A DNA stretch of 64,000 nucleotides, taken from positions 8,436 to 72,435 of the IMG/VR virus record IMGVR_UViG_3300036857_000203; one strand, given 5' to 3'. The notes under the pieces were generated by a model, which saw nothing but the letters and a program-made list of their open reading frames with translations, did no database searches and was not told the DNA's origin. Positions 6,105-60,300 of this stretch are shown piece after piece. The DNA comes from a virus. Positions within the stretch are counted from its first letter, which is position 1. Each line of letters starts with the position of its first letter. The position numbers were made by a program, and so were the translations under genes.

Positions 6105-6537
6105 GCAGCATTGCCTCGATCTCATCACGCAGTTGCTTGCGCGTAATCCCTGGCATGATTTCTTCGATGATCACGTTGGTGATCTTCTCCGTCAGAAGGC
6201 GGAGCTGTTCGTCGCTGATTCGCGTCAGGCTCTTACCCTTGGCCTCGATCTTACGTGTGTGTGGATCGTAGATCGCTTTGCTGTAGCCGACACGCACCTT
6301 GAACGCTTCCATGGCATGATCCTTGTCGAGAAATTCGTCCGAATTGTTTGCAACAAGATGAACGAGAGCCCAAAGATACCGTAGCAACTGGATGTTCTTC
6401 TCACGTCTGATGGTGGCAGTCACATCGCTGTCCATGGAGATGATATGCAGGTCCTCTTCCGCCATTTCAGAGGACGGAAACAATCCGACCTCACCACGAT
6501 AGTGGGCACGACGCTTTCGAAGAAAGGTTTCGATCAC
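6088..6537 (-). CDS. DUF1367/NinB-like recombination-associated protein
   Basis: R.KNIQLLRYLWALVHLVANN...KVRVGY...KSL pattern; GGAGG RBS; downstream of ERF. Confidence 0.65.
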   Translation of the reverse strand: MIETFLRKRRAHYRGEVGLFPSSEMAEEDLHIISMDSDVTATIRREKNIQLLRYLWALVHLVANNSDEFLDKDHAMEAFKVRVGYSKAIYDPHTRKIEAKGKSLTRISDEQLRLLTEKITNVIIEEIMPGITRKQLRDEIEAMLRERTA

Positions 6538-6550
6538 GTCGCGCCCCTCC

Positions 6551-6631
6551 TTGCCTGCCTCACCTCGCCGAGCCAAGCCACACCGAGGCCTGTCTTGCCG
6601 TGACGAGCCAAGCCGAGCCGAGCCGCGCCAT
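6551..6631 (-). ncRNA. Orphan GGY-NN pentamer unit (putative guide RNA)
   Basis: 14 in-phase pentamers (ggcgc ggctc ggctc ggctt ggctc gtcac ggcaa gacag gcctc ggtgt ggctt ggctc ggcga ggtga) ending GGCA-GGC; intergenic. Confidence 0.75.
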
Positions 6632-6640
6632 GAACGGGCA

Positions 6641-7777
6641 TCATTGGGTGCTCGGCAACCCTCCGCCCGTATCCTCATCATCCGGCGGATTGAGCCGCAT
6701 CTCGGTGCGCTGCCATTCCGCCATCAGCATGCTCCAGTCGCTCTCATCAAAGTCGTTCTCGCGTGGGGCGACATACTGGTTCCAGAACGCCTCGGCAGCT
6801 TCCATGCTTTGCAGCTGGGCGAGTTGATTGGCGACCCAGTTCAGCGCCTCGCCTGGGTCGCTCGGCATGTTGCCGCCGCCGACCTCCGACAGGTCATTGA
6901 GCCGGCGTCCAGTCGCGGCCTGAATCATGTCGTAGGTGCCGGGGAAGTTATCGCTGATGTTCTGCAAGATCGGCTCGTTGATCGCATCCCAGGCTCTCAC
7001 CTCGTCCACCGACTGCGCCTTGCCGATGTAGCGGATGAAGGCGCTCGCCCACTCATCTGGGCCCTTGCCCTGGCCAAGCACGATGCGATGCGGCTTGCTG
7101 TCGTCTGGTGTTGTCTGCGCGGGCGCCGTCTCGGCTGGCCGCTGCGAGGGCCCCGGCACCGGAGCCTTCTCCTGACGCTGATTCGCGTCCTCGTCTACAT
7201 CGGGGAAGTCACCGGCAGGCACCTGGAACAAGGCCAGCAGGAAGTATTTGCGCGCGTTGGTGTGGCACTTGGCGACCGCCTTCTCGTCCCAGTTGCCCTT
7301 GCGATCGCGCGAGATGCACACCCCTGTGAAGCGCGGCTTCTCGGGCCATACCTCGCCCGATGAGTGGAGGATGCTGAACTCGTAGGTGACCGCGAGCCGG
7401 TTGCCCTCCAGTATCTCCTTGGAGACCTCGTTCTGGATCACGGCCAGACCAGCGGCGCCCATCAGCGGCGTCACCGCATAGAGCACGTCCTCCATGCGGG
7501 CATAGTTGTAGCCGAAGTACTCGTTCCGGCCCCGCTTCTCGATGGTATCGACCTTGGACATGACGGCGGCGATGGCGCCGGCAATGTGCCCGACCGGTGA
7601 GCGAAAGAACGGCGTTTCGCTGCGCGGAGCCACCGGGCCACCGTTGGTCTTCTGCGGGAGGGCCTGCTGCTCGCGCACGGCAATGGCGCGCTGAGCAATA
7701 CCGCCGCCGAGGCCGCCCGGGCTCGGCTCTTTAGGCGTTGGGCTTGGAACGAGGGGCCGGCGTGGGGTGGTGGTCAT
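6641..7777 (-). CDS. erf: ERF-family single-strand annealing protein
   Basis: IEKRGRNEYFGYNYARMEDV...ILHSSGE...TNARKYFLLALFQV. Confidence 0.85.
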   Translation of the reverse strand: MTTTPRRPLVPSPTPKEPSPGGLGGGIAQRAIAVREQQALPQKTNGGPVAPRSETPFFRSPVGHIAGAIAAVMSKVDTIEKRGRNEYFGYNYARMEDVLYAVTPLMGAAGLAVIQNEVSKEILEGNRLAVTYEFSILHSSGEVWPEKPRFTGVCISRDRKGNWDEKAVAKCHTNARKYFLLALFQVPAGDFPDVDEDANQRQEKAPVPGPSQRPAETAPAQTTPDDSKPHRIVLGQGKGPDEWASAFIRYIGKAQSVDEVRAWDAINEPILQNISDNFPGTYDMIQAATGRRLNDLSEVGGGNMPSDPGEALNWVANQLAQLQSMEAAEAFWNQYVAPRENDFDESDWSMLMAEWQRTEMRLNPPDDEDTGGGLPSTQ

Positions 7778-8130
7778 TGGTCATCCTTCCAATCGTCTTC
7801 CTGTTCCTTGATCCTGGCTTTCAGCGCATCAACCGCAGCCTTGTTCTCGAAATGCAGTTCTCGCATAGAGACAGTGCACTCTGTCGTGTATTCGTTAGGT
7901 TCTTGGATGTGCAAGCCGTCCTCGTAGAAGTAGAACGCGGCGTTCTTCAGGTACGTCTCGATTGCCTCGTGGATGATCTTGCGAATGAGGGAGTGAAACA
8001 GCGATTCATCGACGTTGATGTCGATCGAGTAGCGATCTTTGTCGATCGATACTGCCTTCCACAGGTCTTCGGGCCATTCACCCAGCTCCCAGGCCGTCAG
8101 GTCAACCTTGATAAGTCGCTTCTTTGTCAC
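7774..8130 (-). CDS. Hypothetical protein
   Basis: ORF with 4-bp overlaps on both sides. Confidence 0.65.
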   Translation of the reverse strand: MTKKRLIKVDLTAWELGEWPEDLWKAVSIDKDRYSIDINVDESLFHSLIRKIIHEAIETYLKNAAFYFYEDGLHIQEPNEYTTECTVSMRELHFENKAAVDALKARIKEQEDDWKDDQ

Positions 8131-9032
8131 ACGGCCCTCGCGTCCTCGATTACGGTAACTCCTGGAACCTTGGCCCCCGCACGCACCGCCCTGTTGGCGA
8201 GCATCTGCACGGTGCCCCTCACGTCTTCGCTGTCCTCGAAGAACTTCAGACAGACCGCGTAATCATCGATCCGCGCCTTCTTGGTCGACTTGAGCGTCTG
8301 GGCGCGGCCACGAGTACCAGCACGGGGACGAGGGGCATCAGCTGCAGCTGGCTCGCCCCTCGCCGCCGCTGCCTCGGCTTCCTGTTGTTGCGCCTCCGTC
8401 TGGCGCTGGAGCCAAGGCGTAGTGAGCCGGTACTTCAGGTTCTTGTAGACCTCGGCGGCAGTCTGGAGCGGCGACCACCGCGCTTGTATTCGCTTGAGTT
8501 CTTCGTCGTGGGGCTTGCGGTCGGCCTTGCGCTGCTCCTCGGCCTTCTTCCAGAGTTCCGCCAGACGATCGGCGAGGTTGGCGATCCTGTTGGCTTCGTC
8601 CTGGTCCTGGATAGGTCCGCCCTTCAGGCGCTCCTCGGCCTCGCGCGCCAGGGGCTCGATTGCGTCCCGTAATCCTTCGAAGCTCTCATCGTCGGGCGGC
8701 TGGTTGTCGCCCATAGCGACCAGTTCGTGCTCGTCCGGCCACAGCCCACCGTTCTGAGCAACCTCACGATAGGCCTGCTCGCTTACTGGGTGCTGACCGA
8801 CCCGCGTCCAGAGTTCCAGGGCGCGCTGGGGCGTCACATCATCGTCGCCAATACGACAGTGCAGCTGACCGTTCTCGTTGGGCCAGTACGCGACAGGCCG
8901 GAACGTGCGCCGCGCGCCGTAGTGCTCCTTGCGCGGCTCCCGGTAGAACCCAGCCTGTGGGTGGCTCGGGCTCATCTGCACGGGCTTGCCGTTGAGCCGG
9001 TCGTGCCAGTACTGCCATTCCCATTCAGCCAT
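8127..9032 (-). CDS. Phage protein of recombination module (coiled-coil C-terminus)
   Basis: GGAGGAG RBS; PQAGFYR...PVAYW; GDNQPP; ends VPGVTVIED. Confidence 0.75.
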   Translation of the reverse strand: MAEWEWQYWHDRLNGKPVQMSPSHPQAGFYREPRKEHYGARRTFRPVAYWPNENGQLHCRIGDDDVTPQRALELWTRVGQHPVSEQAYREVAQNGGLWPDEHELVAMGDNQPPDDESFEGLRDAIEPLAREAEERLKGGPIQDQDEANRIANLADRLAELWKKAEEQRKADRKPHDEELKRIQARWSPLQTAAEVYKNLKYRLTTPWLQRQTEAQQQEAEAAAARGEPAAADAPRPRAGTRGRAQTLKSTKKARIDDYAVCLKFFEDSEDVRGTVQMLANRAVRAGAKVPGVTVIEDARAV

Positions 9033-17147: not shown

Positions 17148-17357
17148 ATGCACAAGCGGGAAGAGTCGGCGAACCTGAACGAGGGACTACGCGCCGCGAT
17201 CGACGCTTGCGGTTCGCGCTATGCCCTGGCCAAGCGGCTCGGCCTGACACCGGTAGCAGTGCTTGATTGGTGGCGCATCCCGGCGGACTTGGTGGTCGAG
17301 GTGGAGAGAGTATCGGGCGTGCCCCGCGAGAGGCTACGCCCGGAGCTGTACTACTAA
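17148..17357 (+). CDS. Cro/YdaS-like HTH regulator
   Basis: AIDACGSRYALAKRLGLT..AV..W.RIP...VERVSGVPRERLRPELY. Confidence 0.85.
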   Translation: MHKREESANLNEGLRAAIDACGSRYALAKRLGLTPVAVLDWWRIPADLVVEVERVSGVPRERLRPELYY

Positions 17358-17902
17358 CGCCCGCGCAGGAAGCGCTCAGCCTCGCGACCGGTGAGCGGCG
17401 GCTTGCGCAGCTTGCCGGTCAGCGCGGCTTGCTTGTGCTCCTCACGCACCCTACGCTTCTCCTTCTCCACGAGCCGCCTCTGCTCGACAGTGGGAGCTTT
17501 GTTGTGACTGTTAGCGACGGCGTAGGCCGCCTCAGCGACATCCTTGGCGAGAGGGCTCCGCTTGAGATAGGTGGGAATCTCAAGCTCATCCAGCTGACCA
17601 GCAAGTGGTTTGTCGCCGGGCTTCTCCTGCACGACGGGCGCGTCGTTAACGTCGCTCCGATCCTCGGCTACATGCACGGCTGGACCCGGCAGCGGGTCCT
17701 TCGCTACGCCCGCATCCGGCACTGGACGGCCACAGAGCTTTGAAGCTTGCCGCAGCCTAAGCCGGTCGAGCGTCTTGCGCAGACCAGGAAGCTTGACCTC
17801 GGCATTCACCAGGGCCGCGAGCGCGCCGTTGCGTTGCATCTCCAGGCGAGCGACTTGGGCACGCAGAAGGCGGATGTCTCTTTGGAGCTTTGTCTCTTTC
17901 AT
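17354..17902 (-). CDS. Hypothetical protein
   Basis: GAAAGG RBS, own promoter; LEIPTYLKR motif. Confidence 0.65.
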   Translation of the reverse strand: MKETKLQRDIRLLRAQVARLEMQRNGALAALVNAEVKLPGLRKTLDRLRLRQASKLCGRPVPDAGVAKDPLPGPAVHVAEDRSDVNDAPVVQEKPGDKPLAGQLDELEIPTYLKRSPLAKDVAEAAYAVANSHNKAPTVEQRRLVEKEKRRVREEHKQAALTGKLRKPPLTGREAERFLRGR

Positions 17903-17935
17903 GGTGTTACCTTTCATGTATCGCACTAGATAGGT

Positions 17936-17964
17936 AGTGTAGCACATCTGCAACACTATGTCAA
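17936..17964 (-). promoter_or_regulatory. Sigma70 promoter
   Basis: TTGACA-N17-TACACT with TG extension. Confidence 0.75.
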
Positions 17965-18077
17965 GATGGCAGATACCTATCTCAGTGGCATCTGACAGCC
18001 GCCCATTATTGCGATTACGCTGATGCAGATCGCCACCGCCAGGACGAGGATCGCCACCTCGCGCATGGTGTAATGCC

Positions 18078-18662
18078 TCATCGGCCAACCCTCTCTGAGG
18101 CCGGCACCCAATGCGTGAGTGGCCACGGCACATTGCGCTGATCAGGATGATCACCCGGCCATCCGTTGCAGTGCCCGATCTCGTGCCGCAGCAGCAGACC
18201 AGTGTTCCAGCCGCGCGTACGCATCACCTCGTCCTCGACCAAATAGATCACGCAGCTCTTAGCGTTGTGACGGGCGCATGCCAGCATCTTTGGATTATAG
18301 ACGTTGCATGCTGCGCGCAGCGCTTCGAACGTCGGCAGCATTATGATCGTCAGGTCGCCATCGTAGGGCTTGTCGTACTCAGGTGGCGGCAAGATCGGAT
18401 ACTGCGTCTGCGGCGGACGTGGTGCCGGCGCCAGATACCCCATGTCATTCGGATTGTGGGGTCGATTGTTGGTGGGCTGGAGATCAGCCTTGGGCGCCGG
18501 GGGCGGTATGGGCACGACCTTGGAGGGCAGCGGCACGATCTTGGGAGCGGCTGTGATGTTGTTCACGCGCTGGGGGTGGACCGGCGAACTGATGCTGATC
18601 ACCCCCAGCGTTATTGCCGCCAGAGCAAGCGCGAACCAAGCTAGCTGCTTGTCGGTGAACAT
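18078..18662 (-). CDS. Exported zincin-like metalloprotein
   Basis: N-terminal signal/TM, Pro-rich linker, HEIGHCNGWPGDH. Confidence 0.65.
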   Translation of the reverse strand: MFTDKQLAWFALALAAITLGVISISSPVHPQRVNNITAAPKIVPLPSKVVPIPPPAPKADLQPTNNRPHNPNDMGYLAPAPRPPQTQYPILPPPEYDKPYDGDLTIIMLPTFEALRAACNVYNPKMLACARHNAKSCVIYLVEDEVMRTRGWNTGLLLRHEIGHCNGWPGDHPDQRNVPWPLTHWVPASERVGR

Positions 18663-18836
18663 GTTGGACCTTTCATGCGTTACCTGTGAGGATTATCCCC
18701 ACAGCGATGACGACGATGACGACAAAGATAGTTGCGCGTATAGATGTTCCCGCCGAGAACATCTAATTCGGGCCGTTGTGTATGCGGTCGAATACCTGCC
18801 CCATTGTGTGGGTCTATGTGTTGAAGTGACGTCATT

Positions 18837-19052
18837 TCAGCCCAGCTGGCTCACGATCTGCTCGAACTTCCGCTCGCTGGTGGTGAGCCGCATGATCACC
18901 AGGAGCCGCAGCAAGCGTGCTGCAGGCTCTGGGATGGTGGCGCCCTCGGCGTAACGGTAGGGCGTACGACGCCCGAGACCGAGGACCTGGGCCATACGCA
19001 GATGCGTCCAGCCCAGGGTCTCTCGTGCATTACGGTATTCGCTCGTGGTCAT
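18837..19052 (-). CDS. XRE-type HTH protein
   Basis: YRNARETLGWTHLRMAQVLGLGRRTPYRYAEG..IP. Confidence 0.75.
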   Translation of the reverse strand: MTTSEYRNARETLGWTHLRMAQVLGLGRRTPYRYAEGATIPEPAARLLRLLVIMRLTTSERKFEQIVSQLG

Positions 19053-19060
19053 GGTCTCCT

Positions 19061-19255
19061 CTAATCTTCCATCAGTGCTGATCCAGGATCGACGTTGCCC
19101 TCGATGATGAAGCAGTCCTTGCGTGTCAGCGGCTTGCCGCCGTTGAACTCCAGGCTGATCGTTGAGCCTGGGAGCCAGACCTTGACCTCGCGGTCCAGGT
19201 CCTCGGGTTTGACTGCGTCGATGATCGTCCGCAGCTGTCGAGCGCTGAGGCTCAT
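19061..19255 (-). CDS. Hypothetical protein
   Basis: Coupled ORF in leftward operon. Confidence 0.6.
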   Translation of the reverse strand: MSLSARQLRTIIDAVKPEDLDREVKVWLPGSTISLEFNGGKPLTRKDCFIIEGNVDPGSALMED

Positions 19256-19512
19256 CGTCCTCTCTCCTTCAGAAACGCGATGGTGGCCGCAATCTCCGCA
19301 GCCCAGGCCTCCAGGTCGGCGATGGTGTGCGCGACGTTGGAATGCTGTCGCAGCGTCTCGGTGCGGATGTCCGCCAGCGAGAGCGGCAATGGCCTGTTCT
19401 CGGTGGGCTGCGATGGCGTCGGGACCGGCGGATCGCTCAGCAGCGGCCCGTGCTCCTGGATGGCGTCCTCCAGGGTGCTGATCTCACGCTTCTTGTGCTT
19501 GCGCTTCGCCAT
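19252..19512 (-). CDS. Hypothetical protein
   Basis: AAGGAG RBS. Confidence 0.6.
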   Translation of the reverse strand: MAKRKHKKREISTLEDAIQEHGPLLSDPPVPTPSQPTENRPLPLSLADIRTETLRQHSNVAHTIADLEAWAAEIAATIAFLKERGR

Positions 19513-20311
19513 GGTCTTGCTCCTTTCTGAGTTGGGTTGAGACATAGTCGTGGTGGTCGAACGGGATTACCGGAATGTTGTCGGCGAGCCCGTCCAGGTC
19601 GGGGCAGTCGCCGCCGATGTAGTTGGCGACCATGTGCCCGATGATCGCGCCCTGGTGGCGCTGGCGTAGCTGATAGGGCTTATCGGCGTCGGGCGGCAGC
19701 ACGGTGAGCACATCGAAGAAGCTGTAGGACCCCCCCTTGTGCCGCAGCACGCCCACGGCAGTCAGTTCGGTGTTGGCGAGGCTGATCGACGTGTTCCGGT
19801 GCTTCTCGCTCTCGCGCATGATCATGCCGGCGAAGCCGCACATGGCGACCATGCCGCCGGCCTCAAAGATGTCGAGCTTGCTGCGCTCGGCAATGCCGCC
19901 CAGGGCGTGCCAGGAGAAGAACGCGAGCTTGGTGCGCTGAGCACTGAGCTTGCCTCTGCGCTGTAGCCGCATGACATAGGTGCGCACCATCACGCCATGC
20001 TCGCGGCCCGGGACCAGCGGATGCTTGTCCACCTCCCAGGTGAGTAGCTCCACGATGGCAGAGCGCTTGCGCTTGAAGTGCCCGTTGACGAAGCAGCAGC
20101 GCTCGCCCTGGGCGGCCTTGAGGCGCTGCACGCCGGCCATGAACTGGTCGGCAGCTTGCCTGGGGCCGCCCGTGATCGAGCCCAGGAACTTCTCCATGGC
20201 CTGGGTCCAGAGCGTGCAGCCCGGGGTGAGTATGCCGGCGCCCATCATCTGGCGTTCAGCCAGATCGCGGGTGAGTTGCGCGATGAAGATGCGGCCGGCG
20301 GTGCTGATCAT
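19484..20311 (-). CDS. Hypothetical protein
   Basis: 275-aa ORF coupled to neighbours. Confidence 0.7.
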   Translation of the reverse strand: MISTAGRIFIAQLTRDLAERQMMGAGILTPGCTLWTQAMEKFLGSITGGPRQAADQFMAGVQRLKAAQGERCCFVNGHFKRKRSAIVELLTWEVDKHPLVPGREHGVMVRTYVMRLQRRGKLSAQRTKLAFFSWHALGGIAERSKLDIFEAGGMVAMCGFAGMIMRESEKHRNTSISLANTELTAVGVLRHKGGSYSFFDVLTVLPPDADKPYQLRQRHQGAIIGHMVANYIGGDCPDLDGLADNIPVIPFDHHDYVSTQLRKEQDHGEAQAQEA

Positions 20312-20772
20312 CGCAGCATCCCCATGAAGCGGCCCTGCATCGCGTCGTAATCGTTCATGTGTAGCGGCGAGAGCGTCGCCGGCCCACGCTCGGGGCGCAG
20401 GATGAAGAAGTTCCCAGAGAGCACGTTTCCCCAGCGATCCTCGGCATTGATTATCAGCACCTCGCGCCGGTCAGGGTGCTCGCTCGGGCGCGGTCCCTCT
20501 TTCGCTTCGGTCATCGTGTTCACCGTGGCAATCCAGGCCTCGCAGATGAAGGCTAAGCGCTTCACATGCTTTGCCTGGAACATCATGCGCAGCCCGCGCT
20601 GGGTGATGTCCTTCTCCTCGTCGCTCGACCAGGGTGTGGCGATCAAGACGTGCTCATCATTGCCATCGACGACATGCCACATCGGAAGAATCTCCCCGCT
20701 CTCGCCGAATATCCGCATGGCGTTCTCGGCAGCGTTGGCAAAGAAGTCTTCAAGCTCGGTCTTGGGGGTCAT
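20308..20772 (-). CDS. Hypothetical phage protein
   Basis: AFICEAW...RPSEHPDRREVL motif. Confidence 0.7.
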   Translation of the reverse strand: MTPKTELEDFFANAAENAMRIFGESGEILPMWHVVDGNDEHVLIATPWSSDEEKDITQRGLRMMFQAKHVKRLAFICEAWIATVNTMTEAKEGPRPSEHPDRREVLIINAEDRWGNVLSGNFFILRPERGPATLSPLHMNDYDAMQGRFMGMLR

Positions 20773-20804
20773 GTCTCGCGTCCCTTCATGTTCTCCGGTA
20801 ATCA

Positions 20805-20842
20805 CGCCCGCCCCGGAAGCTCCTCAGCAAACAGGGCGGGCG
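20805..20842. terminator. GC-rich hairpin, possible terminator or processing site
   Basis: cgcccgccc / gggcgggcg inverted repeat, 20-nt loop, intergenic, no U-tract. Confidence 0.3.
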
Positions 20843-20868
20843 CTTATCCGCTGGGAGCGGTCGGGGGA

Positions 20869-21090
20869 CTATTCCCCAGCGGCATCTGGCGGCAGGAGCC
20901 TGCCATCGACGTACCGGTAATTGACCGGGTCGTCGCTCTCTACGACGCGGGTCTCGCGCACCATCATCCAGCGCATGGAGAGGTCGAAGACGTTCTGCTC
21001 GGCCTCCTCGCGAGTGGCGAATCGCAGTGCGTTGCCGCACCATTGCCCAGAGTTGTCGGCGATCACTTCGGGGGCGTAGCTCTTGGGCAT
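20869..21090 (-). CDS. Hypothetical phage protein
   Basis: GQWCGNALRFATREEAE...VVESDDPVNY. Confidence 0.7.
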   Translation of the reverse strand: MPKSYAPEVIADNSGQWCGNALRFATREEAEQNVFDLSMRWMMVRETRVVESDDPVNYRYVDGRLLPPDAAGE

Positions 21091-21091
21091 G

Positions 21092-21370
21092 TCAGTCTTT
21101 CCTTTCATGGTCTGGGTTGGGGTCCTTGGCTTCACTGTCAAACACCATTGCCGCTGCCTCCAGGAACTTCTTCTTGTTCTCCTGGTGTGCGCCATGCACC
21201 TGCACGACGATCATGGCGGCGGCCTTGAGAAACATCGCGATAAGACATGAGAAGACATCGCGCCGCCGGCCAGCAATCTCAAATGCCTGAGTCGTGTCCT
21301 TGATCAGGTGATAGAGCTTGCCCTCGGCATAGCCCTGCAGGTCCTGCTGGAGTTGGGTGAGCGGCATCAC
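21092..21370 (-). CDS. Hypothetical protein
   Basis: Coupled ORF. Confidence 0.55.
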   Translation of the reverse strand: MMPLTQLQQDLQGYAEGKLYHLIKDTTQAFEIAGRRRDVFSCLIAMFLKAAAMIVVQVHGAHQENKKKFLEAAAMVFDSEAKDPNPDHERKD

Positions 21371-21639
21371 ACGGGCTCCTTCTGCCAGATGCCCTGGGCA
21401 ATGCAGGCAATCTGAAGCTCGCGTTCAAACGCCTTCACGACACGCTTGAAGGTGGCCTTCGTCGGGTCGCAATGGCGGGTGCGGCTCCAGGTGCCGCTGC
21501 TTACGCTGTATTCCCATTGGCTCCATTCCCAGGCGGGATGCGCGGCTACGCGGGTGCGCTTCACCCGATATTGCTGATCGCCCACGACAATGTCGTAGCG
21601 CTCGGTGACGTTTCTCCAATCAATGGCTGGCTTGGTCAT
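21367..21639 (-). CDS. Hypothetical protein
   Basis: CATGAAAGGAAC leader. Confidence 0.6.
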   Translation of the reverse strand: MTKPAIDWRNVTERYDIVVGDQQYRVKRTRVAAHPAWEWSQWEYSVSSGTWSRTRHCDPTKATFKRVVKAFERELQIACIAQGIWQKEPV

Positions 21640-21848
21640 GTTTCAGTTCCTTTCATGGGTTCACGGCGGATAATTTCGGCGCGCTGGCACTCCCAGCCGC
21701 GTTCGTCCGCGACAGCGCCGGCCACTGCCAGGGCGGTGGCATCGTCAGTGGCGTTCACGGTGAGGCTCTGAGGATCGAAGACATCCAGCGAGCCCTCGGG
21801 GCGGACGTGGACGAGGAGGAGATAGCGGGTCATGGGTTTAGTGGTCAT
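21636..21848 (-). CDS. Hypothetical protein
   Basis: Coupled ORF. Confidence 0.55.
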   Translation of the reverse strand: MTTKPMTRYLLLVHVRPEGSLDVFDPQSLTVNATDDATALAVAGAVADERGWECQRAEIIRREPMKGTET

Positions 21849-22182
21849 GGTGCCAAGTCACTTTGCCGCCATGACCAACGTGGGCGTGCATGCCGGCGTG
21901 GGTGTTGGGAGCGCGACCCGCTAAGGCCTGAGCTTGACGAACGAGTTCAATGAACATTGGCGACCCGGTCTTGGCCAAGATTCTGAACGAGCACGCATCC
22001 GACACGCCGTCCTTGCTCGTGTCCTCCCAGCCGGCGAAGGCGGGCGCGCCGGTTGCGGGATCGATCACGAGGCGGATGCGCCCAGCAGCGAGCCCCTGGG
22101 CGAGGCGGGTGACCGCCTCGCGTACTTCCTTGGCGCGCTCCTGGATGGTCTGGCGCGGACGCAGTTTCGTGTCGCATGCCAT
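21838..22182 (-). CDS. AAA-module small protein, His-rich C-terminus
   Basis: GAGGAGGG RBS; ends HAGMHAHVGHGGKVTWHHDH. Confidence 0.7.
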   Translation of the reverse strand: MACDTKLRPRQTIQERAKEVREAVTRLAQGLAAGRIRLVIDPATGAPAFAGWEDTSKDGVSDACSFRILAKTGSPMFIELVRQAQALAGRAPNTHAGMHAHVGHGGKVTWHHDH

Positions 22183-22192
22183 AGTGCCCTCC

Positions 22193-22975
22193 TCACAGGT
22201 CCAGCTGGCGCGGCGTAGCGCTGTAGCCCTCGAAGGGCAGATCATCGTCCAGGTCCACGCCCCGGCCCTCGCCCTCGCTTGCCTCGACCGGGGCGGCGTC
22301 GTCCAGGTCCAGGAACGAGATGCGGGCTTCCTCCAGGCGCTGGATGGCGACGTTGTCCACCTCAACGGCAGCGCCCTCGCCGGCCTTGACGATGTCGCGG
22401 GCAACCTTCCTGGCCACCTCGATGGCCTTGCTCACGCGCTCGCTGGCGTTGGGTTCCAGCATCTTGCCCAGGGTGCGGGCTTCGTTGGCGGCCTTGCGGA
22501 TGGCCTGGGGATCGAGGTTCTTGACGCCATCGCGCATGGCGTCGACGAAGTCGCGCACCTGTTCGTTGATGGCGCGCACCGCCTCTACGTCATCGGCACT
22601 CACGCGGCCGATCATCACAGTGACGCCCACGTAGGTCCAGGTCGCGGTGGCGTTGAAGTCCTCGGCAAGCTGGCGCGCCTCGCGCACCGCCTGACGAAGC
22701 CTCTCCTCGCGCTCGGTCGGGCACATCAGGCCGAAGTCGCCGGCCTTGACGCAAGCCGACTGAATCTTGGAGCGGGCAGCGGAGCGGACCTTGGAGGCGC
22801 GAGCTTGCTCGGCGGGGTCCTTGGTGGTGCGCTCGGTTTCCCAACGGGCGCGGCCCTCACCCTCGGCAGTGATATGATCCTGCTCAAGCTCCAGGGTCTT
22901 GTACTTGACGTTGCCCTTGACGGTGGTGCGGGCGCGCACCAGCAGGCCGGGGCGGAGGGTTGCGATATCAGACAT
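22193..22975 (-). CDS. AAA-module partner (DUF3150-like)
   Basis: 260-aa mostly helical ORF downstream of the AAA gene; family call tentative. Confidence 0.6.
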   Translation of the reverse strand: MSDIATLRPGLLVRARTTVKGNVKYKTLELEQDHITAEGEGRARWETERTTKDPAEQARASKVRSAARSKIQSACVKAGDFGLMCPTEREERLRQAVREARQLAEDFNATATWTYVGVTVMIGRVSADDVEAVRAINEQVRDFVDAMRDGVKNLDPQAIRKAANEARTLGKMLEPNASERVSKAIEVARKVARDIVKAGEGAAVEVDNVAIQRLEEARISFLDLDDAAPVEASEGEGRGVDLDDDLPFEGYSATPRQLDL

Positions 22976-23016
22976 CGTGGGTTCCTTTCACCGGGTTGGA
23001 GTAACCCGTGCCACGT

Positions 23017-23046
23017 GTATATGTCACCGTGGCACGGTCTTGTCAA
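23017..23046 (-). promoter_or_regulatory. Promoter with palindromic operator (copy 1)
   Basis: TTGACA-N17-CATATA with TGTCACCGTGGCA (plus strand) in the spacer. Confidence 0.6.
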
Positions 23047-23052
23047 TACATG

Positions 23053-24675
23053 TCATGCTAAGTCTAGCGCACGCTCGGTAGAGAACGCCGGACGCTCGGC
23101 GTCGGGGGTGGTGGCGAGACGAGCGCGCTTGCTCCAGGTGCGCAGGCGCTTGACTTGGTCGGCCATGCTGTCCACCAGCGGCACGACCTTGCTGGCGGCG
23201 TTGAGGATGTCGGTGGCTGCGAGCGCACGCTGACCATCGGTGAAGCTCGCGAACAACGCCTCCTGCACGAGGTTGGCGACCTCTGCCGCCGTGAAGGTGT
23301 CGGTGGCTTTGACGATGGCCGCCGTGTCCTCGGTGCTGAACGGCTGGCGCTTGAACTTGGCCAGGGTGACGTTGAGCACTTCGGCGCGCTCGCGCGCAGT
23401 CGGAACGTCCAGGAACCACATCTCATCCCAGCGCCCCTTGCGGAGAAGCTCGACGGGGAGCCGGTCAGGGTCATTGGCCGTTGCCAGGATGAAGGCCTCG
23501 GACTTGCGGTCATTCATCCAGCTGAGCAACACCGCGAGTTTGTCTGCGGCCACGCCGCCGTCACCGGCAGGACCCGCGCCACCGGAGAGGGTCTTGTCCA
23601 CCTCATCGAGCCAGAGCACGCACGGCCCCAGGGCATCGACGGTGTCGAGCATGGCGCGGATATTCTGCTCGCTCTCGCCCAAGAACTTGCTGCCGGTCGC
23701 GCCCAGGTCGCCTTGGACGAGCGGGCATAGCCATGACGTGGCGAGGGCTTGGGCAGTGAAAGTCTTGCCGCTGCCGGGAATGCCCACGAGCAAGCAGCCC
23801 TTGGGGCGCTGGATGCCGTAGGCACGAGCCTCGGGGCTCCAGGCGAGCTTGCGCTGGACAAGCCAGGGCTTCAGGGCATCGAGCCCGCCCACCGCGTCCA
23901 AGCCGCCAGGGAGCGGCTCAACCCAGCGCAGCATGCCGTTGGAGGCGATGATGCGCTTCTTCTCCTCACTGATCACCGCTGGCTCGATGGCGCGGCTTTG
24001 CACGATGCTCTTGGCGAAGCAGCCTTCGGCCTGCGGGCCGGTGAGGCCGACAGCGGCGTCCACGATGGCTTCGCGCTTGCCGTTGAGCGGCTGCACCTTG
24101 CCAGGGTTCTGCCGGATGGCAGTGGCAATGGCCACATCGGCCATGCGGCCAAGCTCTTCACGGTCGGGCAATGGCCACTCCACCGTGACGGCGTCGTTGG
24201 CAACATCACTCGGAACCTTGGCCCCAGGCGCAAGCACGATGACGCTGGTGCCGGTGGCGGGCAGGGTGCGGGAGAGATTGCGCAGCCAGCGGGTGACGGT
24301 GACACCCGGGCCGCCATCGCACCACTTGTGCAGATCGCGGAGAATCCAGACCTCCTTGCCGCCGTCACGGGAACGCTCGCTGATCTTCTTGAGCAGGCTC
24401 ACCGCATCGATGGGGGCGTTTGCCCCACCCTGGAGGGCGGCTGCGATGGGGTCGGTGGAGGCATCGTTGCCCATGCCGGCGACGGGATTGCCGCCCACAT
24501 CGGTGGCACCCTCGGCGCAATCCCAGAAGAACGGCATGTAGCCCGCGCTCTTGGCGGCTTCGATCAGGCATAACTCGATCCGCCTCTCCTCGCGGGAGTT
24601 GACCCAGAGCACGCCGTTGCGTGCCTTGATCAGTGATGCGACATCAGCGCCCTGGACTTGAGACTTGGTCGGCAT
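23053..24675 (-). CDS. Ycf46-like AAA+ ATPase
   Basis: VGGLDALK, Walker A GIPGSGKT, Walker B LWLDEVDK, ATANDPDRLPVELLRKGRWDE; degenerate N-terminal AAA domain. Confidence 0.9.
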   Translation of the reverse strand: MPTKSQVQGADVASLIKARNGVLWVNSREERRIELCLIEAAKSAGYMPFFWDCAEGATDVGGNPVAGMGNDASTDPIAAALQGGANAPIDAVSLLKKISERSRDGGKEVWILRDLHKWCDGGPGVTVTRWLRNLSRTLPATGTSVIVLAPGAKVPSDVANDAVTVEWPLPDREELGRMADVAIATAIRQNPGKVQPLNGKREAIVDAAVGLTGPQAEGCFAKSIVQSRAIEPAVISEEKKRIIASNGMLRWVEPLPGGLDAVGGLDALKPWLVQRKLAWSPEARAYGIQRPKGCLLVGIPGSGKTFTAQALATSWLCPLVQGDLGATGSKFLGESEQNIRAMLDTVDALGPCVLWLDEVDKTLSGGAGPAGDGGVAADKLAVLLSWMNDRKSEAFILATANDPDRLPVELLRKGRWDEMWFLDVPTARERAEVLNVTLAKFKRQPFSTEDTAAIVKATDTFTAAEVANLVQEALFASFTDGQRALAATDILNAASKVVPLVDSMADQVKRLRTWSKRARLATTPDAERPAFSTERALDLA

Positions 24676-24708
24676 AGGAGGATTACCTTTCATGGGTTAC
24701 GGGAATAC

Positions 24709-24738
24709 GTATATGCCACGGTGGCATCCTGGTTTCAA
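24709..24738 (-). promoter_or_regulatory. Promoter with palindromic operator (copy 2)
   Basis: TTGAAA-N17-CATATA with TGCCACGGTGGCA in the spacer; same spacing as copy 1. Confidence 0.6.
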
Positions 24739-24881
24739 GCCCCACGGCGAAAGATTACATTGATCACAGCGAGCGCGGCTATTACGACGACAACGGTGCC
24801 TGCTGTGGTCTGTAAGCTGTAGCCGTTCCAAAGCGTAATTGCCGCCACAATAATCACGGTTGCCCAGTTATCGCTGGTCAT
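24735..24881 (-). CDS. Small membrane protein
   Basis: 48 aa, two hydrophobic stretches. Confidence 0.55.
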   Translation of the reverse strand: MTSDNWATVIIVAAITLWNGYSLQTTAGTVVVVIAALAVINVIFRRGA

Positions 24882-25081
24882 GACGCGCACCCCTCGCACA
24901 CGACTTGGACGTGGCGCACGCTCGCCTTGGGAAACTTGGCCTGAAGCTCGGCCCGCACGAGGTGGGCTGGGGCATCGGCGTGGAACGGCAGCGGATAGGT
25001 GCCGGCGGGATAGGCGCCGCCCTCGGGGAAGGTGGCGGTCCAGCAATGGCCTGGGCGGTTGGGCTTGATGACGATGGTCAT
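24878..25081 (-). CDS. Hypothetical protein
   Basis: CATGAAAGGAAC leader. Confidence 0.6.
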   Translation of the reverse strand: MTIVIKPNRPGHCWTATFPEGGAYPAGTYPLPFHADAPAHLVRAELQAKFPKASVRHVQVVCEGCAS

Positions 25082-25116
25082 TGTCAGGTTCCTTTCATGC
25101 GTGTATAGCGGTTGAT

Positions 25117-25181
25117 GGCAAGGCAAGGCGCGGCAGGGCACGGCCCGGCGATACAGGGCTGGGCCCGGCACGGCGCGCCTC
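25117..25181 (+). ncRNA. Orphan GGY-NN pentamer unit (putative guide RNA), antisense to the surrounding operon
   Basis: ggcaa ggcaa ggcgc ggcag ggcac ggccc ggcga tacag ggctg ggccc ggcac ggcgc gcctc; intergenic. Confidence 0.75.
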
Positions 25182-25190
25182 GGGGGGGGG

Positions 25191-25901
25191 TCATGCCCCC
25201 TCCCCAATATCGAGCTTGTCTTCACCCCAGGGCAGGCCATAGCGGACGGCGCAGGCCTTGCCGTAGCCTACTGCGAGGCTCTTCTTGGCGGTGGGGCTGT
25301 CGCCGCCCAGGGCAAGGTTGCAGAACACGCAGCGGCCGGTGAGCGTGGCGCTCTCCTTGGCGACCTTGGCCGGCTCGCAGGCGAACTCACGCAGGCGCTT
25401 GGCGATGGCCTCGGTGCGACCGTTGGCAACGCGCGCCGGCTGATACTGCCCATCGACCGTTACGCGGCCCAGCCACACGCGGCGCGGGCCCCAGTCGCCT
25501 TCCTCGAAGACGTCATTGTCCTTCACATCGATGCTGCCGGGGACCTTCGCCTTGGCGCTGGCGATCGAGAGGCGAACGACGGTGTCGGCCTCGGGGACGG
25601 CCAGGGTGATGGCGGGCTTCTTGAGGCTGACCTTGGCGCGGTCGAACAACTGCAACACGCCGCCCAGGTCGCCAACGGCTTGAATGGCCTGCGCGGGCTT
25701 GGCCTGGGGCGCTAGCGACCAGACCTGATCGCCGTAGCGGTTCTTGCCCTGGTAGGTACCCAGGGTGACTTCCTGGGTGCGGCCGTCGCGCTTGTAGACG
25801 ATGACGGTGCCACCGGGCTCGGCGTTGGCGGCCTTGTCCTCGGGGATGCGAACGCCCCAGGTGGTGGCGTCGAGCTTCACGTAGGAGGTCGGGAAAGACA
25901 T
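25191..25901 (-). CDS. DUF6011-type Zn-finger domain protein
   Basis: GRCVFCNLAL...SLAVGYGKACA; CATGAAAGG leader. Confidence 0.75.
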   Translation of the reverse strand: MSFPTSYVKLDATTWGVRIPEDKAANAEPGGTVIVYKRDGRTQEVTLGTYQGKNRYGDQVWSLAPQAKPAQAIQAVGDLGGVLQLFDRAKVSLKKPAITLAVPEADTVVRLSIASAKAKVPGSIDVKDNDVFEEGDWGPRRVWLGRVTVDGQYQPARVANGRTEAIAKRLREFACEPAKVAKESATLTGRCVFCNLALGGDSPTAKKSLAVGYGKACAVRYGLPWGEDKLDIGEGA

Positions 25902-25940
25902 GTTCAGTGGCCTTTCATGGGTGAGAGCGACAACGGGATA

Positions 25941-25969
25941 CACGTATAGCACCGCAATGCATCTGTCAA
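25941..25969 (-). promoter_or_regulatory. Sigma70-like promoter at head of leftward early block
   Basis: TTGACA followed 15-17 nt later by TATACGTG. Confidence 0.55.
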
Positions 25970-26324
25970 TGGGTGGATTACGGTAATCGTCGCTGCGGTG
26001 CAGCAATAAGTTCCTGGGTGGGGATAGTGGGGATAGCGCGCAAAGGGCTTCCCGAATCAGACGCAATCGCTTAAACGCATCAAGCCCCACAAGGATCGCT
26101 CCCTGCAGGGCTTGGTTTATGTCCGCGAGCTTGGTCGGCGCTCGGACACAAGGTCTGAAACACAAGACCTTGTACTCCGCCCCCCGACCAACAGCAAGCG
26201 GTAGATGCGCTCGATGGAACGCGACCATCGAGGCGGTGCGCTCTCAACGTTGCCGGAACCGCACCTTCCGGCACGCTAGCGGAGCATTGGCGGTGCCTCG
26301 CGCGCGCGTGCGCGGCAGCGGATA

Positions 26325-26475
26325 TCTGGAGAGAAAGAGAGGGGTCTACCGAGTAGAGCACTATCTCTCACACTCACTGTTACCTTTGGATAGAACAGAA
26401 AGGTTCTTAGTAATTAGAAAGAATCTTTCTAGAACATCTAAGGAAGATAGGAAGAGGAGAGAATGGTGGTAAGGC
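26325..26475. other. AT-rich purine-skewed tract, candidate replication origin
   Basis: Sharp GC drop with repeated AGAA/TAGAA words near the strand switch. Confidence 0.35.
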
Positions 26476-26508
26476 ACTAGAGGGGCAGAACCGGGTTGTA
26501 ACAACTGA

Positions 26509-26985
26509 GTGGATACTGCCACGATGGCACGAGACAACTGGAGACGCATAGCGCAAGAGGCCTGGAATGCTCCTGGCTGGAAGCAAGCGGCCACTGAATA
26601 CGCTCGTGATCCGCATGGATTACTTGATGACATGCCAGCAAGGGACCCTTGGGTGCGCCGGCATCAGTGGGAGAGACACAAGCGGCTTGTGCAGTTGGAG
26701 CGGGTACTGATTGGCATTGCTGTGCATGGGCCAAGCACGATGCAAGAGCCTGAGCATGCGAAGTTCATTGCGTGGGCCAAGGTGAGCTGGCGGTATACAT
26801 ATACGCAGATCATGGCCAAGCAGCGCGAGGAGTGGTTGAGGCGCGAGGCCGAATCGCGTCAAGCTCCTGCTGCCCATCCTGCTGGCTGTGCGTGTTGGGA
26901 CTGTGTGCTGGCGCTGTATGGGGCAGCTGCCAAGCACCGTGCGGTGCTCGACCAGAGGGCGAGGGCAAAGGACGAGGCGTTCTGA
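26509..26985 (+). CDS. Hypothetical protein with HPxGCxCWxC motif
   Basis: 158-aa ORF. Confidence 0.6.
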   Translation: MDTATMARDNWRRIAQEAWNAPGWKQAATEYARDPHGLLDDMPARDPWVRRHQWERHKRLVQLERVLIGIAVHGPSTMQEPEHAKFIAWAKVSWRYTYTQIMAKQREEWLRREAESRQAPAAHPAGCACWDCVLALYGAAAKHRAVLDQRARAKDEAF

Positions 26986-27161
26986 TGAGCCCGGAGCAGG
27001 ATGATAAGGGAGCGTGGTTCATTACGTTGCCCAATGGCGAGCGGGCGGAATTTGGCAGCAACGCTGAGGCGTGGCGCTGGCTTGACCGGCATGAGCGGCG
27101 CGAGACGTGGGTGAGCAGCAAGGCACAGTGGCGCATGCCGGCAAAGTACGATGCGCCGTGA
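26985..27161 (+). CDS. Hypothetical protein
   Basis: FGSNAEAWRWLDRH motif; TGATG coupling. Confidence 0.6.
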   Translation: MSPEQDDKGAWFITLPNGERAEFGSNAEAWRWLDRHERRETWVSSKAQWRMPAKYDAP

Positions 27162-57382: not shown

Positions 57383-60300
57383 CAAGGGCCGCAAGATCAT
57401 GTCCGCGATGCAGGGCCAGTATGGCTCTGAGAAGGGCGAGCGGGTCTTCTATGCATCGCGCAACGCGGGGCGGATTACCGGGGTCGATCCTGGGCACTGG
57501 CGGGGCGGCATTGTTGGGTATGCCGAGGGCGGCATCGTTCGGCACGACGCCGATCCCGATCTTCCTGGTGTGCAGGATGAGGCCGATCTGATCCCGCTGA
57601 CGGAAGGGCAGGGACCGACCCGCAGTCAGGTGCTCGATACCATCGAGCTGCTGCACGCGAACCGGCGCCGGGCACAGGGTCTCGACCAGAATATCTCCGA
57701 GATCGACAACCCCAACTTCTTCCTGCGGCAAGATCGCGAGCGCGAGGCCCCGCGTCAGCAGACCATCCGTCCGCAGGCTTGGCCGTTCCTCAATCCGCGT
57801 CGGCGGCGTCGCGGCGGTTCCATCGATGGCATCGAGGAGATGTTTGACGGGGCGTCGAGGGGGTATGGGCGCTATGCGCGCGGTGGGCGCATCCGCTACC
57901 TCGAAGATGGCGGTGGCGGCGGCGACGGTGGCGACGGCGGTGGCTGTGGCAGTAGCGGCTGCGGCGACAGCGGCTGCGGCGCCAGCGGCTGCGCTGGCTG
58001 TGGATGCAGTGGCGATGCTTGCGGCGGTGGCGCCTGTGGCGCCTGCAGCTGCGGCGGTGCGGGCGGCTGCGGTGCCTGTGGTGTGACCGGCACCGCTACT
58101 GGTGCAGGCGACAGCGGCGCTGCTGGCGGCAGTGGCTGCGGTGGCACTGGCGGCGGCTGCTCTGAGGCTGCTGGCACGACCGGCGATGCTGGTCTTGGCA
58201 TGTCGGGGTTGGGCGCGGCGGCGATGGGCGCGCTCGGGGCAGAAGCGACGACGGGGGAAACGGGAGAGACAGGGGGAGGAAGAGGTGGTGGCCGAGGTGG
58301 CGGCTTGGGCGTGGGTGGCCTGGGCTACGCGGGCCAGACGGGCCAGACGGGTGGGAGAGGCGGTCCAGGTGGGATTGGCGGTCCAGGCGCTCCTGGCCTT
58401 GGGCTTGGTGTGGGATGGGGTGGCGGTCCTTATGGTGGCATGACCGCAGCTGCGGCGTTCGCGGGCGGCCCGTTCTCAGGGGCCGCTCTTGGCACTGCCC
58501 ATGGTGCAGAGACCGGCGGTCAGTTCGGTCCCGGCGCTTCTGTTAGCGCGACTGGTGCGCCCGGTACCGGCACCTTCGGAGCCGAGAGCACGGCCGGTGG
58601 TGGTGGCACCAACGGCCTGGGTATGGCGGGGGCCTCCTGGGGTGGTGGCCCCGGCTTCGGCGGCACCTCTGGTTACGCAGCTACCGGCACGCAAGACATC
58701 TCGCCCGCTGTTGGTGGTCGCGGCGGTGGCGAGGAGGATCAGGGTGGCGGCCGAGGTGGAGGTCGTGCAGGTGCTGCTCCAGCTGCCACTTCTGACCGGG
58801 GTGGAGGCCGAGGTGGTGGCGCCACTGTTGCAAGCGAGGCGGCGCCGCTGGGAGGTGCCCCCGATCCCACCAGCGAGCCGGGAGCAGGTACCGAGCCCTC
58901 GGGTGGTCCGAGTGATATTGGCGGCGGTAGGGGCACCGCCGTAGGCACCCCTGCGGCAGCGCCTTCCGTTACCGATACGCCGGCTGTCACCGACACGCCC
59001 GCTGTCACCACCGATGAGCCTGGGGAGAAGAGCGGGAGCAAGGGTATCGGCACTATCAGTGGTGCGACGGTCGCTCCAGGCGCACCTGCCACCACGCTGG
59101 GCTTGGGTGCACCAGTGTCGGGAGGGCTTACGAGTCAGGCTTCCACCCTAAGCGGCGGTCTCCCCGGAGCAGAACCCACCACGGGCAGCATGTCTGTGAT
59201 GGGCGCCCCTGCCAACGTGGGCAATATCGGGGCGATCAGCTTCGGCCCAGGCAATGCCTTCGGCGATCCCAACTATGGATTGCCTGGGACGCAGGACATC
59301 GGCCAGCCCACGCAGGGTGAGCGATCTGGTGCTCGCGATGCCCCATTGGCTCCGGGCACGCAGAGCCCTGCGGCCGGGCTGCTCGGCGGCAGCTTCACCG
59401 GCACCACAACCGGGTTGGAGGGGTTCAACAACGCTCCCACCAGTACTCAGAGCCAGACCGGGACGGTCGGTGGTCTCGGCGGCGGTCTCAGCATGTCGGG
59501 AACGATGGCGGGTACGCCGACGTCGGCGGTAGGCATCGGCGGAACGACGCTGGGCTTCGATTCTCCGATCGGCAATACCCCAGGCGGTGGTCTGGCCGGT
59601 CCTGCGGGCGGGATGCAGGGTGGGGCTCCTGCCGACCTCAGCGCGTTTACTGGCGCCAACGCCTTCGGTCCTGCCGGGAGCTTTACTGGCGGCAGAGGGG
59701 ACGAGGGCGAGGCCAGGGGTGGTTCGCGCTCTGGCGCCGTCTCGCCTGCGAATGCGCCCGGGCTCGCGGCCCCCGGGAGCCTTGTGGGCGCGGCAGTCAG
59801 CCCGGCGGTTTCCGCGCTGGGCACGCCAGATCCCGGTGCGCTTTCCAGCCGGGGCGCGATCTCGACCGCGATGGACCCGACGCAGACGCTCGGGGCACCA
59901 CAGACGTTTGCTCCGTCTATCTCTTCGCTCCCCGGCTTTGTCGGCATTGCCCCAGCGCCTGCCCCCGGTTGGAGCCCGGGCGAGCAGACGCAGGGTCGAG
60001 CGGGCGCTGCGTTCGAGAACGCGCCGGGTGGCCGAGGTGATCGCGGTGGCGGGCCGGCGCTGGGGGCGACCGCCCAGGACATCGCTGCTGCACATGCTTT
60101 AGCGGGAACACTAGACTTTGGTGGGCGCTTTGGCGGGCAGCCTAGCTTCGATCCTGGTCAGCAGATGGCTGGCCGAGGCGTTGCCACTACGTTCGGCGCT
60201 AATCCGTTGTCGGCTCTGGGGGCACCGGCAACGCCGACGCCGGGCATGTTCGGGGCAGTGCCGGGTGGGTTCACAGTATCGCCAGCGAATGCCCAGAACA

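Follow-up and report, generated by a model that had tools for sequence, protein, structure and literature searches.

A five-base repeat in a soil phage operon is probably a detached guide RNA of the phage's own VIPR system, kept beside a diverged copy of its target gene

What is a run of 13 five-base units doing on the plus strand, inside an operon whose surrounding genes read leftward? The run lies at 25117-25181 of the window, the 64,000-nucleotide (nt) stretch of IMG/VR record IMGVR_UViG_3300036857_000203 (positions 8,436 to 72,435) analyzed here, the bulk of a 72,435-bp phage genome present as a single contig. We conclude that the repeat, here called guide C, is probably a detached guide-RNA (vrRNA) gene of the phage's own VIPR system: a weapon against relatives, kept beside the phage's own resistant allele. 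An initial annotation, made from the letters, had taken the arrangement as a hint of an unknown guide-writing or gene-drive mechanism. The mechanism has instead a published counterpart, as the genome encodes a Vipr protein with its partner gene and a staggered array of guides 8 kb from the repeat.

VIPR, whose definition rests on Escherichia phage SUSP1 and a prophage of Pseudomonas fulva, consists of a Vipr RAMP, a vap gene and a vrRNA. In the examined sections of the preprint that reports it (bioRxiv 10.64898/2026.04.26.720920), the vrRNA consists of 9-16 GGY/NN repeats whose NN dinucleotides read double-stranded DNA, with one base skipped per unit (usually the wobble base), on either strand and with no protospacer-adjacent motif. 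The same sections call natural targets at an NN match of at least 80%, with no self hit above that value, and describe staggered arrays, one of several types, in which one vrRNA's end doubles as the start of its successor. Where a second preprint was examined (10.64898/2026.04.26.720927), it places one Vipr protomer on each repeat, with base-specific contacts to G1, G2 and Y3, and has R-loop growth start from the 3' end.

Guide C and the two genes that enclose it are as follows.

25117-25181, plus strand: guide C, proposed guide region of a detached vrRNA gene; 13 GGY/NN-type pentamers, antisense to the surrounding leftward operon
25191-25901, minus strand: DUF6011-family gene, 236 amino acids (aa), first in the leftward operon; the guide footprint covers its most conserved motif
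24878-25081, minus strand: small gene, 67 aa, downstream, the other boundary of the cassette

The 13 plus-strand units of the initial annotation were borne out. They run in a single 5-nt register within the 109-bp gap between the two minus-strand genes, with GGC as scaffold in 11 units, TAC at unit 8 and GCC at unit 13; an automated run caller returned 12 units (25117-25176, conformity 0.94). The share of GGY scaffolds, 11/13, compares with 10/12, 9/12 and 8/11 in array guides. Five-unit GGCNN patterns number 35 in the window against 0.16 expected (0/100 shuffles) and are confined to three intergenic loci, 6557-6629 (minus), 15188-15703 (minus) and 25117-25179 (plus). Genome-wide, runs of at least six GGCNN units occur at these same loci and in one intragenic seven-unit run at 58197-58231; mononucleotide-shuffled genomes contain 0-3 such runs each (n = 20). 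Guide C is the sole long GGCNN run on the plus strand of the genome. Extension to a 14th dinucleotide (AT, before the first GGC) was tried and rejected: by eye, it mismatches the codon after the motif both in the phage's own gene and in those of relatives, and 13 units were kept.

Reverse-complemented, the NN series of guide C reads E-A-V-G-Q/H-L-S-G-V-L-A-L-F, exactly as first written, and the resident counterpart given with it is likewise correct: 25644-25682 on the minus strand encodes QAVGDLGGVLQLF (Q-A-V-G-D-L-G-G-V-L-Q-L-F), codons 74-86 of the DUF6011-family gene.

25645-25682, plus strand: resident near-target of guide C, 19/26 informative bases; guide-sense, that is, antisense to codons 74-86

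The match covers 8/13 dinucleotides and 19/26 bases (73%), in codon phase and with the skipped base at the wobble position. Of about 145,000 positions on the two strands of the 72,435-bp genome, this site is the single best, at a distance of 464 bp from guide C. Score alone does not make the match of guide C to the resident gene significant: a genome-wide maximum of at least 19 is reached by 111/1000 unit-order shuffles and 72/1000 base shuffles of the guide. A best match at most 1.1 kb away is found for 13/400 shuffles. The resident allele departs from guide C at seven informative positions, spread over codons 74, 78, 80, 83 and 84 and including a TTG-for-CTN leucine switch and a rare A84Q. 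No site in the phage's own genome reaches an 80% NN match, the best being this one.

The alleles of relatives give a sharper test of the code. The DUF6011 name initially given to the target gene stands for the family and not for the resident protein by itself, which scores 15.3 bits against PF19474 (DUF6011; E 0.014, residues 182-221), below the gathering cut-off of 26.6; most of its 38 homologues in a large protein set carry PF19474 in the precomputed Pfam column, and for this reason we write DUF6011-family. An alignment of 27 family members shows its strongest conservation in the block under the guide footprint (residues 74-86). Three residues there (G77, G81 and F86) are invariant and V76, L79 and A84 at least 90% conserved, so that 6/13 footprint codons fall in one class or the other; at position 84, the resident copy carries Q. 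A search with the single DUF6011-family protein yielded no confirmed relative, and one of a phage GenBank collection with 23000-27000 yielded no match. The family alignment recovered 48 IMG/VR loci with DUF6011-family genes (5-9 kb each), which form the set of relatives used here.

In most of these 48 loci the best site for guide C is the homologous motif xAVGxLxGVLALF, in codon phase. The highest match is 23/26 (locus L013, ESVGDLSGVLALF), followed by 22/26 in L001 and in L002 (LAVGQLTGVLALF) and 21/26 in L006 and L008; scanned with a one-base skip, 5 loci reach at least 21, 9 at least 20 and 18 at least 19. Skips of 0, 2 or 3 bases give a maximum of 18, with no locus at 19 or above, and 0/200 shuffled guides reach 22 across the set. 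Because other skips stop at 18 and no shuffle attains 22, guide C is tied to the motif by the one-base-skip code, which supports the original idea of a gapped-code guide whose NN pairs are codon positions 1-2 of the neighboring gene's family. Five foreign alleles pass the 80% NN criterion and the resident allele, at 73%, lies below it, in keeping with the claim that the resident copy is a diverged version of the target. All 13 guide dinucleotides occur in some relative, and an exact 26/26 allele therefore probably exists unsampled. A Vipr homologue is absent from all five best-matching records, two of which are rated at least 90% complete. Strains related to this phage are present in both of two soil DNA runs, whose contigs were compared over 6300-26200; none of the contig differences listed falls inside 25117-25682, a result that is not decisive for guide C.

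The protein that would use such a guide is encoded on the same contig, about 8.0 kb away (end of vipr at 17071 to start of guide C at 25117), together with further guides.

16253-17071, minus strand: vipr, 272 aa, a Vipr-family RAMP resembling Cas7 (from structural model, Foldseek and family profile)
15726-16256, minus strand: partner gene, 176 aa, directly downstream of vipr; vap-like by position
15186-15707, minus strand: main array, about 10 guides, staggered, each closed by a 4-nt GGCA step (unit parsing)
6555-6629, minus strand: guide B, a second detached guide, 15 units, between ERF and NinB-like genes (unit parsing)
14691-14728, plus strand: near-target of U10, the last array guide; own copy 17/26

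No Pfam family was found in the 272-aa Vipr. Its AlphaFold model (predicted local distance difference test score, pLDDT, 84.3; predicted template-modeling score, pTM, 0.78) returned 42 Foldseek matches in the PDB at E <= 1e-3, and those listed are all chains of CRISPR-Cas effector complexes (Csm, Cmr, type VII). A profile of 29 family members finds one PDB sequence at E <= 0.1, SUSP1 Vipr (E 8.1e-7, about 50 residues), with E 0.02 for the single 272-aa sequence. Relatives of this Vipr are encoded in 424 IMG/VR stretches; in a census of 80 loci kept from these, with up to 10 kb of flank on each side where the contig allows, 67 contain GGYNN runs and 17 have the partner gene directly downstream of vipr. 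The partner gene showed no Pfam or PHROG family and no named Atlas structural neighbors. With units that end in the 4-nt GGCA step, the main array fits the staggered type of figure legend S18 in 10.64898/2026.04.26.720920. Solo vrRNAs, in the examined sections of a third preprint (10.64898/2026.10.15.759431), are defined by the absence of Vipr within 20 kb and match their own genome less well than other phages, which is read there as autoimmunity avoidance. Because vipr lies only 8 kb away, guide C falls outside that definition and is better described as a detached guide of a VIPR-positive phage.

A close relative without the system allows these parts to be subtracted. Locus L002 belongs to a 49,918-bp IMG/VR fragment (G003, which also holds L129) that is syntenic with this phage across the entire left arm at 70-86% nt identity; we refer to it as the sister phage. 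Three clean indels separate the two, and they are exactly the VIPR parts.

15119-17364 (array, partner gene and vipr): 46 bp in the sister phage
6501-6678 (guide B): 36 bp in the sister phage
25078-25224 (guide C and flanks): 306 unrelated bp in the sister phage, with a 65-aa open reading frame (ORF)

No Vipr homologue was found anywhere in the sister record. Three guides match the sister phage better than their own genome: guide C at 22/26 versus 19/26, guide B at 23/30 versus 21/30 and U10 at 22/26 versus 17/26. Each of these sister-phage scores is reached by 0/300 shuffles, and each of the matches falls where synteny places the guide's best match in its own genome. U1, U2, U8 and U9 gave nothing significant against the sister phage, and the degenerate U3, U4, U5 and U7 nothing significant in either the window or the sister phage. 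The presence/absence comparison envisaged by the initial annotation thus has a direct answer in this pair, since the phage without guide C carries the better-matching allele. Around guide C, identity to the sister changes in steps, from 84.6% in the AAA ATPase gene to 77.7% (nt) in the small gene, none in the cassette and 65.9% in the DUF6011-family gene. Compared in full (25224-25942 versus L002 386-1109), the DUF6011-family gene shows 65.9% nt and 54% aa identity and the adjoining AAA ATPase gene 84.6% nt and 92% aa; the divergence between sisters reflects either an allele swap or fast evolution at a guide-targeted place.

Guides also tend to lie close to their near-targets. The best own-window site is at most 1.1 kb away for 4/11 coordinate-parsed guides: U1 (1037 bp, its best own match being vipr itself, 20/24), U10 (458 bp), guide B (198 bp; 6314-6357, 21/30) and guide C (464 bp). 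Shuffled guides show such proximity in 4.7% of cases (131/2800). At that rate the adjacency has P = 1.5e-4 for 4/7 well-formed guides and, by our own arithmetic, about 1e-3 for 4/11, with the 1.1-kb threshold chosen after the data had been seen. The initial statement that guides are paired with nearby diverged sites therefore holds for these four. Relative to its near-target, guide C is direct and guides B and U1 are inverted. Guide U10 occupies 15186-15250, and its near-target lies in a gene just beyond the array, where the ORFs 13377-15032 (plus) and 14376-15107 (minus) overlap.

Use of guide C would require an RNA from the plus strand, as had been anticipated, because minus-strand RNA carries GCC in place of GGY and is unfit for the G1/G2 contacts. 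Two flanking features could serve its production.

25082-25110, plus strand: candidate promoter, TTGTCA-17 nt-TATAGC, assigned by eye; ends 6 nt before unit 1
25182-25205, plus strand: G-run/C-rich hairpin directly 3' of guide C; candidate 3' end or terminator, with no T-run after it

The candidate promoter overlaps the ribosome-binding region of the minus-strand 67-aa gene, where CCTTTCATG is a ribosome-binding context that recurs before three genes; the letters of the sister phage differ at both hexamers. The C-rich arm of the hairpin coincides with the final codons (GEGA-stop) of the DUF6011-family gene. As RNA, the 56-nt hairpin segment folds at -25.3 kcal/mol (z -2.0) and the guide C region at -60.5 kcal/mol (z -2.9). 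The hairpin is not common to the array units, whose end is the GGCA step.

Judging from sequence, guide C may be transcribed from this weak promoter-like site and end at the G/C hairpin, and Vipr protomers would then coat the GGY scaffold of the RNA. During co-infection or superinfection, by analogy with type II systems, the complex would bind a rival's copy of the DUF6011-family gene, first in its operon, at a point some 220 bp inside the gene and block its transcription. The phage's own copy would escape through its seven mismatches, including the rare A84Q and the CTN-to-TTG leucine switch. Keeping the guide beside the resistant allele would stop recombination from separating weapon from antidote, and such linkage selection is, we infer, the simplest and more economical account of the position of guide C.

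Besides the threshold chosen after the fact, several observations weigh against a guide that works in this way. A consensus scan of 24600-26400 returned 0 promoter-like and 0 terminator-like sites; the scanner accepts a -10 hexamer only if its sixth base is T, and TATAGC is without this conserved T. The -10-like letters double as part of GCTATAC ... CATGAAAGG, a minus-strand motif found again upstream of the DUF6011-family gene. A search for RNA data sets that contain 24600-26100 listed none. Guide C has neither the 4-nt GGCA end step seen in the array guides and guide B nor a conserved tail. In viral, metagenome and genome contigs, the full 13-unit target pattern and an 11-unit pattern with free leucine codons each gave 0 matches, and the best known match of guide C has three mismatches. 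No guide lies next to the DUF6011-family gene in any of the 48 relatives' loci, and the guides of L010, the only one of them with arrays, do not match this motif. Among the 80 vipr loci, 14 runs are isolated from other runs and only one (L052) lies more than 3 kb from vipr; the nearby top matches of isolated runs are not significant and probably reflect degenerate array sequence. In this small material the adjacency pattern did not generalize.

Much of this would also fit a silent relic, a guide unit that landed inverted in the leftward operon and is by now neither transcribed nor functional. Guide C is antisense to all neighboring genes, and the empty scan, the missing GGCA step and the want of a perfect target point the same way. 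We nevertheless consider a relic unlikely: the scaffold is at least as intact as those of the array guides, a conserved coding motif is still legible in the NN pairs (23/26, in codon phase), a fit that drift would quickly erase, and a promoter-like hexamer pair stands at the right distance, with a strong hairpin after the guide. That the best own-genome site is the neighboring gene, near the operon start, could instead suggest self-regulation, in which weak 19/26 binding to the phage's own DUF6011-family gene times or damps the leftward operon and is not aimed at rivals. Such a role appears improbable given that foreign alleles fit better (22-23 versus 19), that the own score is one that shuffled guides also attain and falls short of the published 80%, and that guides B and U10 also fit their own genome worse than the sister.

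A mechanism hinted at by the initial annotation, local guide-writing, would have guides made from or installed beside a target homologue by a templated process, the resident allele then mutating away. It would explain why, for 4/11 guides, the best own site is at most 1.1 kb away, and the origin of vrRNAs is not explained in the examined sections of the three VIPR preprints. No candidate enzyme is apparent, however, in a locus made up of vipr and a small partner gene without a named family; guide C matches the local allele less well than foreign ones, the reverse of what a simple local copy would show; guides occur in both orientations relative to their near-targets; and linkage selection accounts for adjacency without a new mechanism. 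Guide-writing is thus very improbable, and of "acquired or retained next to their target locus" the second half, as retention beside a resistant allele, is the more economical reading. Scarcely credible, finally, is a phased DNA or RNA repeat with some other role, such as a protein-binding repeat or a structured terminator, whose match to the gene family is due to chance. The strong RNA fold of the region and the nonsignificant own-genome score would agree with it, but the 23/26 and 22/26 matches fall on the homologous motif elsewhere and with a 1-nt skip only, at a level no shuffle reached, and guide C co-occurs with vipr, both being missing from the sister phage.

A detached vrRNA gene thus remains the preferred reading, and the closest known system, as far as the examined sections describe it, is VIPR of SUSP1 and P. 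fulva. The 13 GGY/NN units fall within the 9-16 described; one base is skipped, the wobble base; the guide is directed at a coding motif conserved in related phages, with no own site at 80% or above; and the same genome holds a Vipr-family RAMP, a small partner gene and a staggered main array as in legend S18. Compared with the same sections, the differences are that the 272-aa Vipr is distant from that of SUSP1 (profile E 8e-7 over about 50 residues), that no conserved pseudoknot tail, a type II trait, was seen at guide C, and that vipr is 8 kb distant from guide C, which lies within a different operon in antisense orientation. The solo vrRNAs of F5 satellites and VIPR-null SUSP1-like phages, in the examined part of 10.64898/2026.10.15.759431, resemble guide C as single guides apart from arrays, with a self-match below the foreign match and wobble-aligned targeting of conserved codons. 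The solos reported there target vipr, other vrRNAs, satellites and host repetitive extragenic palindromic (REP) elements, whereas guide C targets the family of the gene next door.

This kind of element is already in print (VIPR, 2026), and guide C adds one natural vrRNA, from a soil phage. Relative to the searched passages of the three VIPR preprints, in which no mention of guides beside a resident homologue of their own target was found, three things are new: single guides of a VIPR-positive phage are dispersed, in one orientation or the other, among operons elsewhere in its genome, the scattered guides sit by the phage's own resistant copy of the gene attacked in relatives, and a syntenic VIPR-less sister phage carries more sensitive alleles. 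This phage and the sister phage make a natural VIPR-positive/VIPR-null pair for testing VIPR in co-infection of close relatives. With them, it can be tested whether VIPR decides the outcome of co-infection and whether the resistant allele is inherited jointly with the guide.

T-even phages carry free-standing homing endonuclease genes beside their own resistant target site, an arrangement known from marker exclusion. The likeness is that a weapon against relatives' alleles is encoded beside the carrier's resistant allele and co-inherited with it in recombination. It is a likeness in logic only: the studied VIPR type silences and does not cut, and no nuclease was recognized in this locus. Tentatively, guide and mismatched allele might form a co-inherited poison-antidote cassette, an RNA-guided counterpart of homing-endonuclease marker exclusion, with adjacency as a general rule of VIPR; we think this possible but doubtful. 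If it were true, the cassette would silence the sensitive allele in mixed infections, only recombinants that gain the resistant allele would escape, and guide and allele would spread together. For the target itself, guide C marks codons 74-86 of a widespread, uncharacterized phage gene family as functionally constrained.

Some further observations concern the repeat and its surroundings. Phased binding sites for a ring-forming or helical nucleic-acid-binding protein, in the manner of TRAP, were considered for the repeat and dropped, as the VIPR literature and the tests agreed with each other instead. Locus L010 holds two large GGY/NN arrays at 6837-8186 (plus), 2.4-4 kb downstream of its DUF6011-family gene, with 10 runs and many GGA scaffolds. 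Several of its units start with GGCAAGGCAA, as does guide C. Searched against all 48 loci and the window, the guides of these arrays gave no match on the DUF6011-family motif, and their targets were not found there.

On the minus strand, the motif CCCATGAAAGG stands just before three consecutive gene starts (24686-24697, 25091-25102 and 25911-25922). At two of the three it forms a four-codon mini-ORF (MKGT-stop, MKGH-stop) a few bases short of the real ATG; its role could be that of a short leader ORF or of a ribosome-binding context common to these genes. The same operon contains a 546-aa AAA+ ATPase (23053-24693, minus; PF00004; phrog_8638 at 3e-138) whose gene is kept in many DUF6011-family loci, which suggests that the AAA+ ATPase and DUF6011-family genes form a conserved early module.

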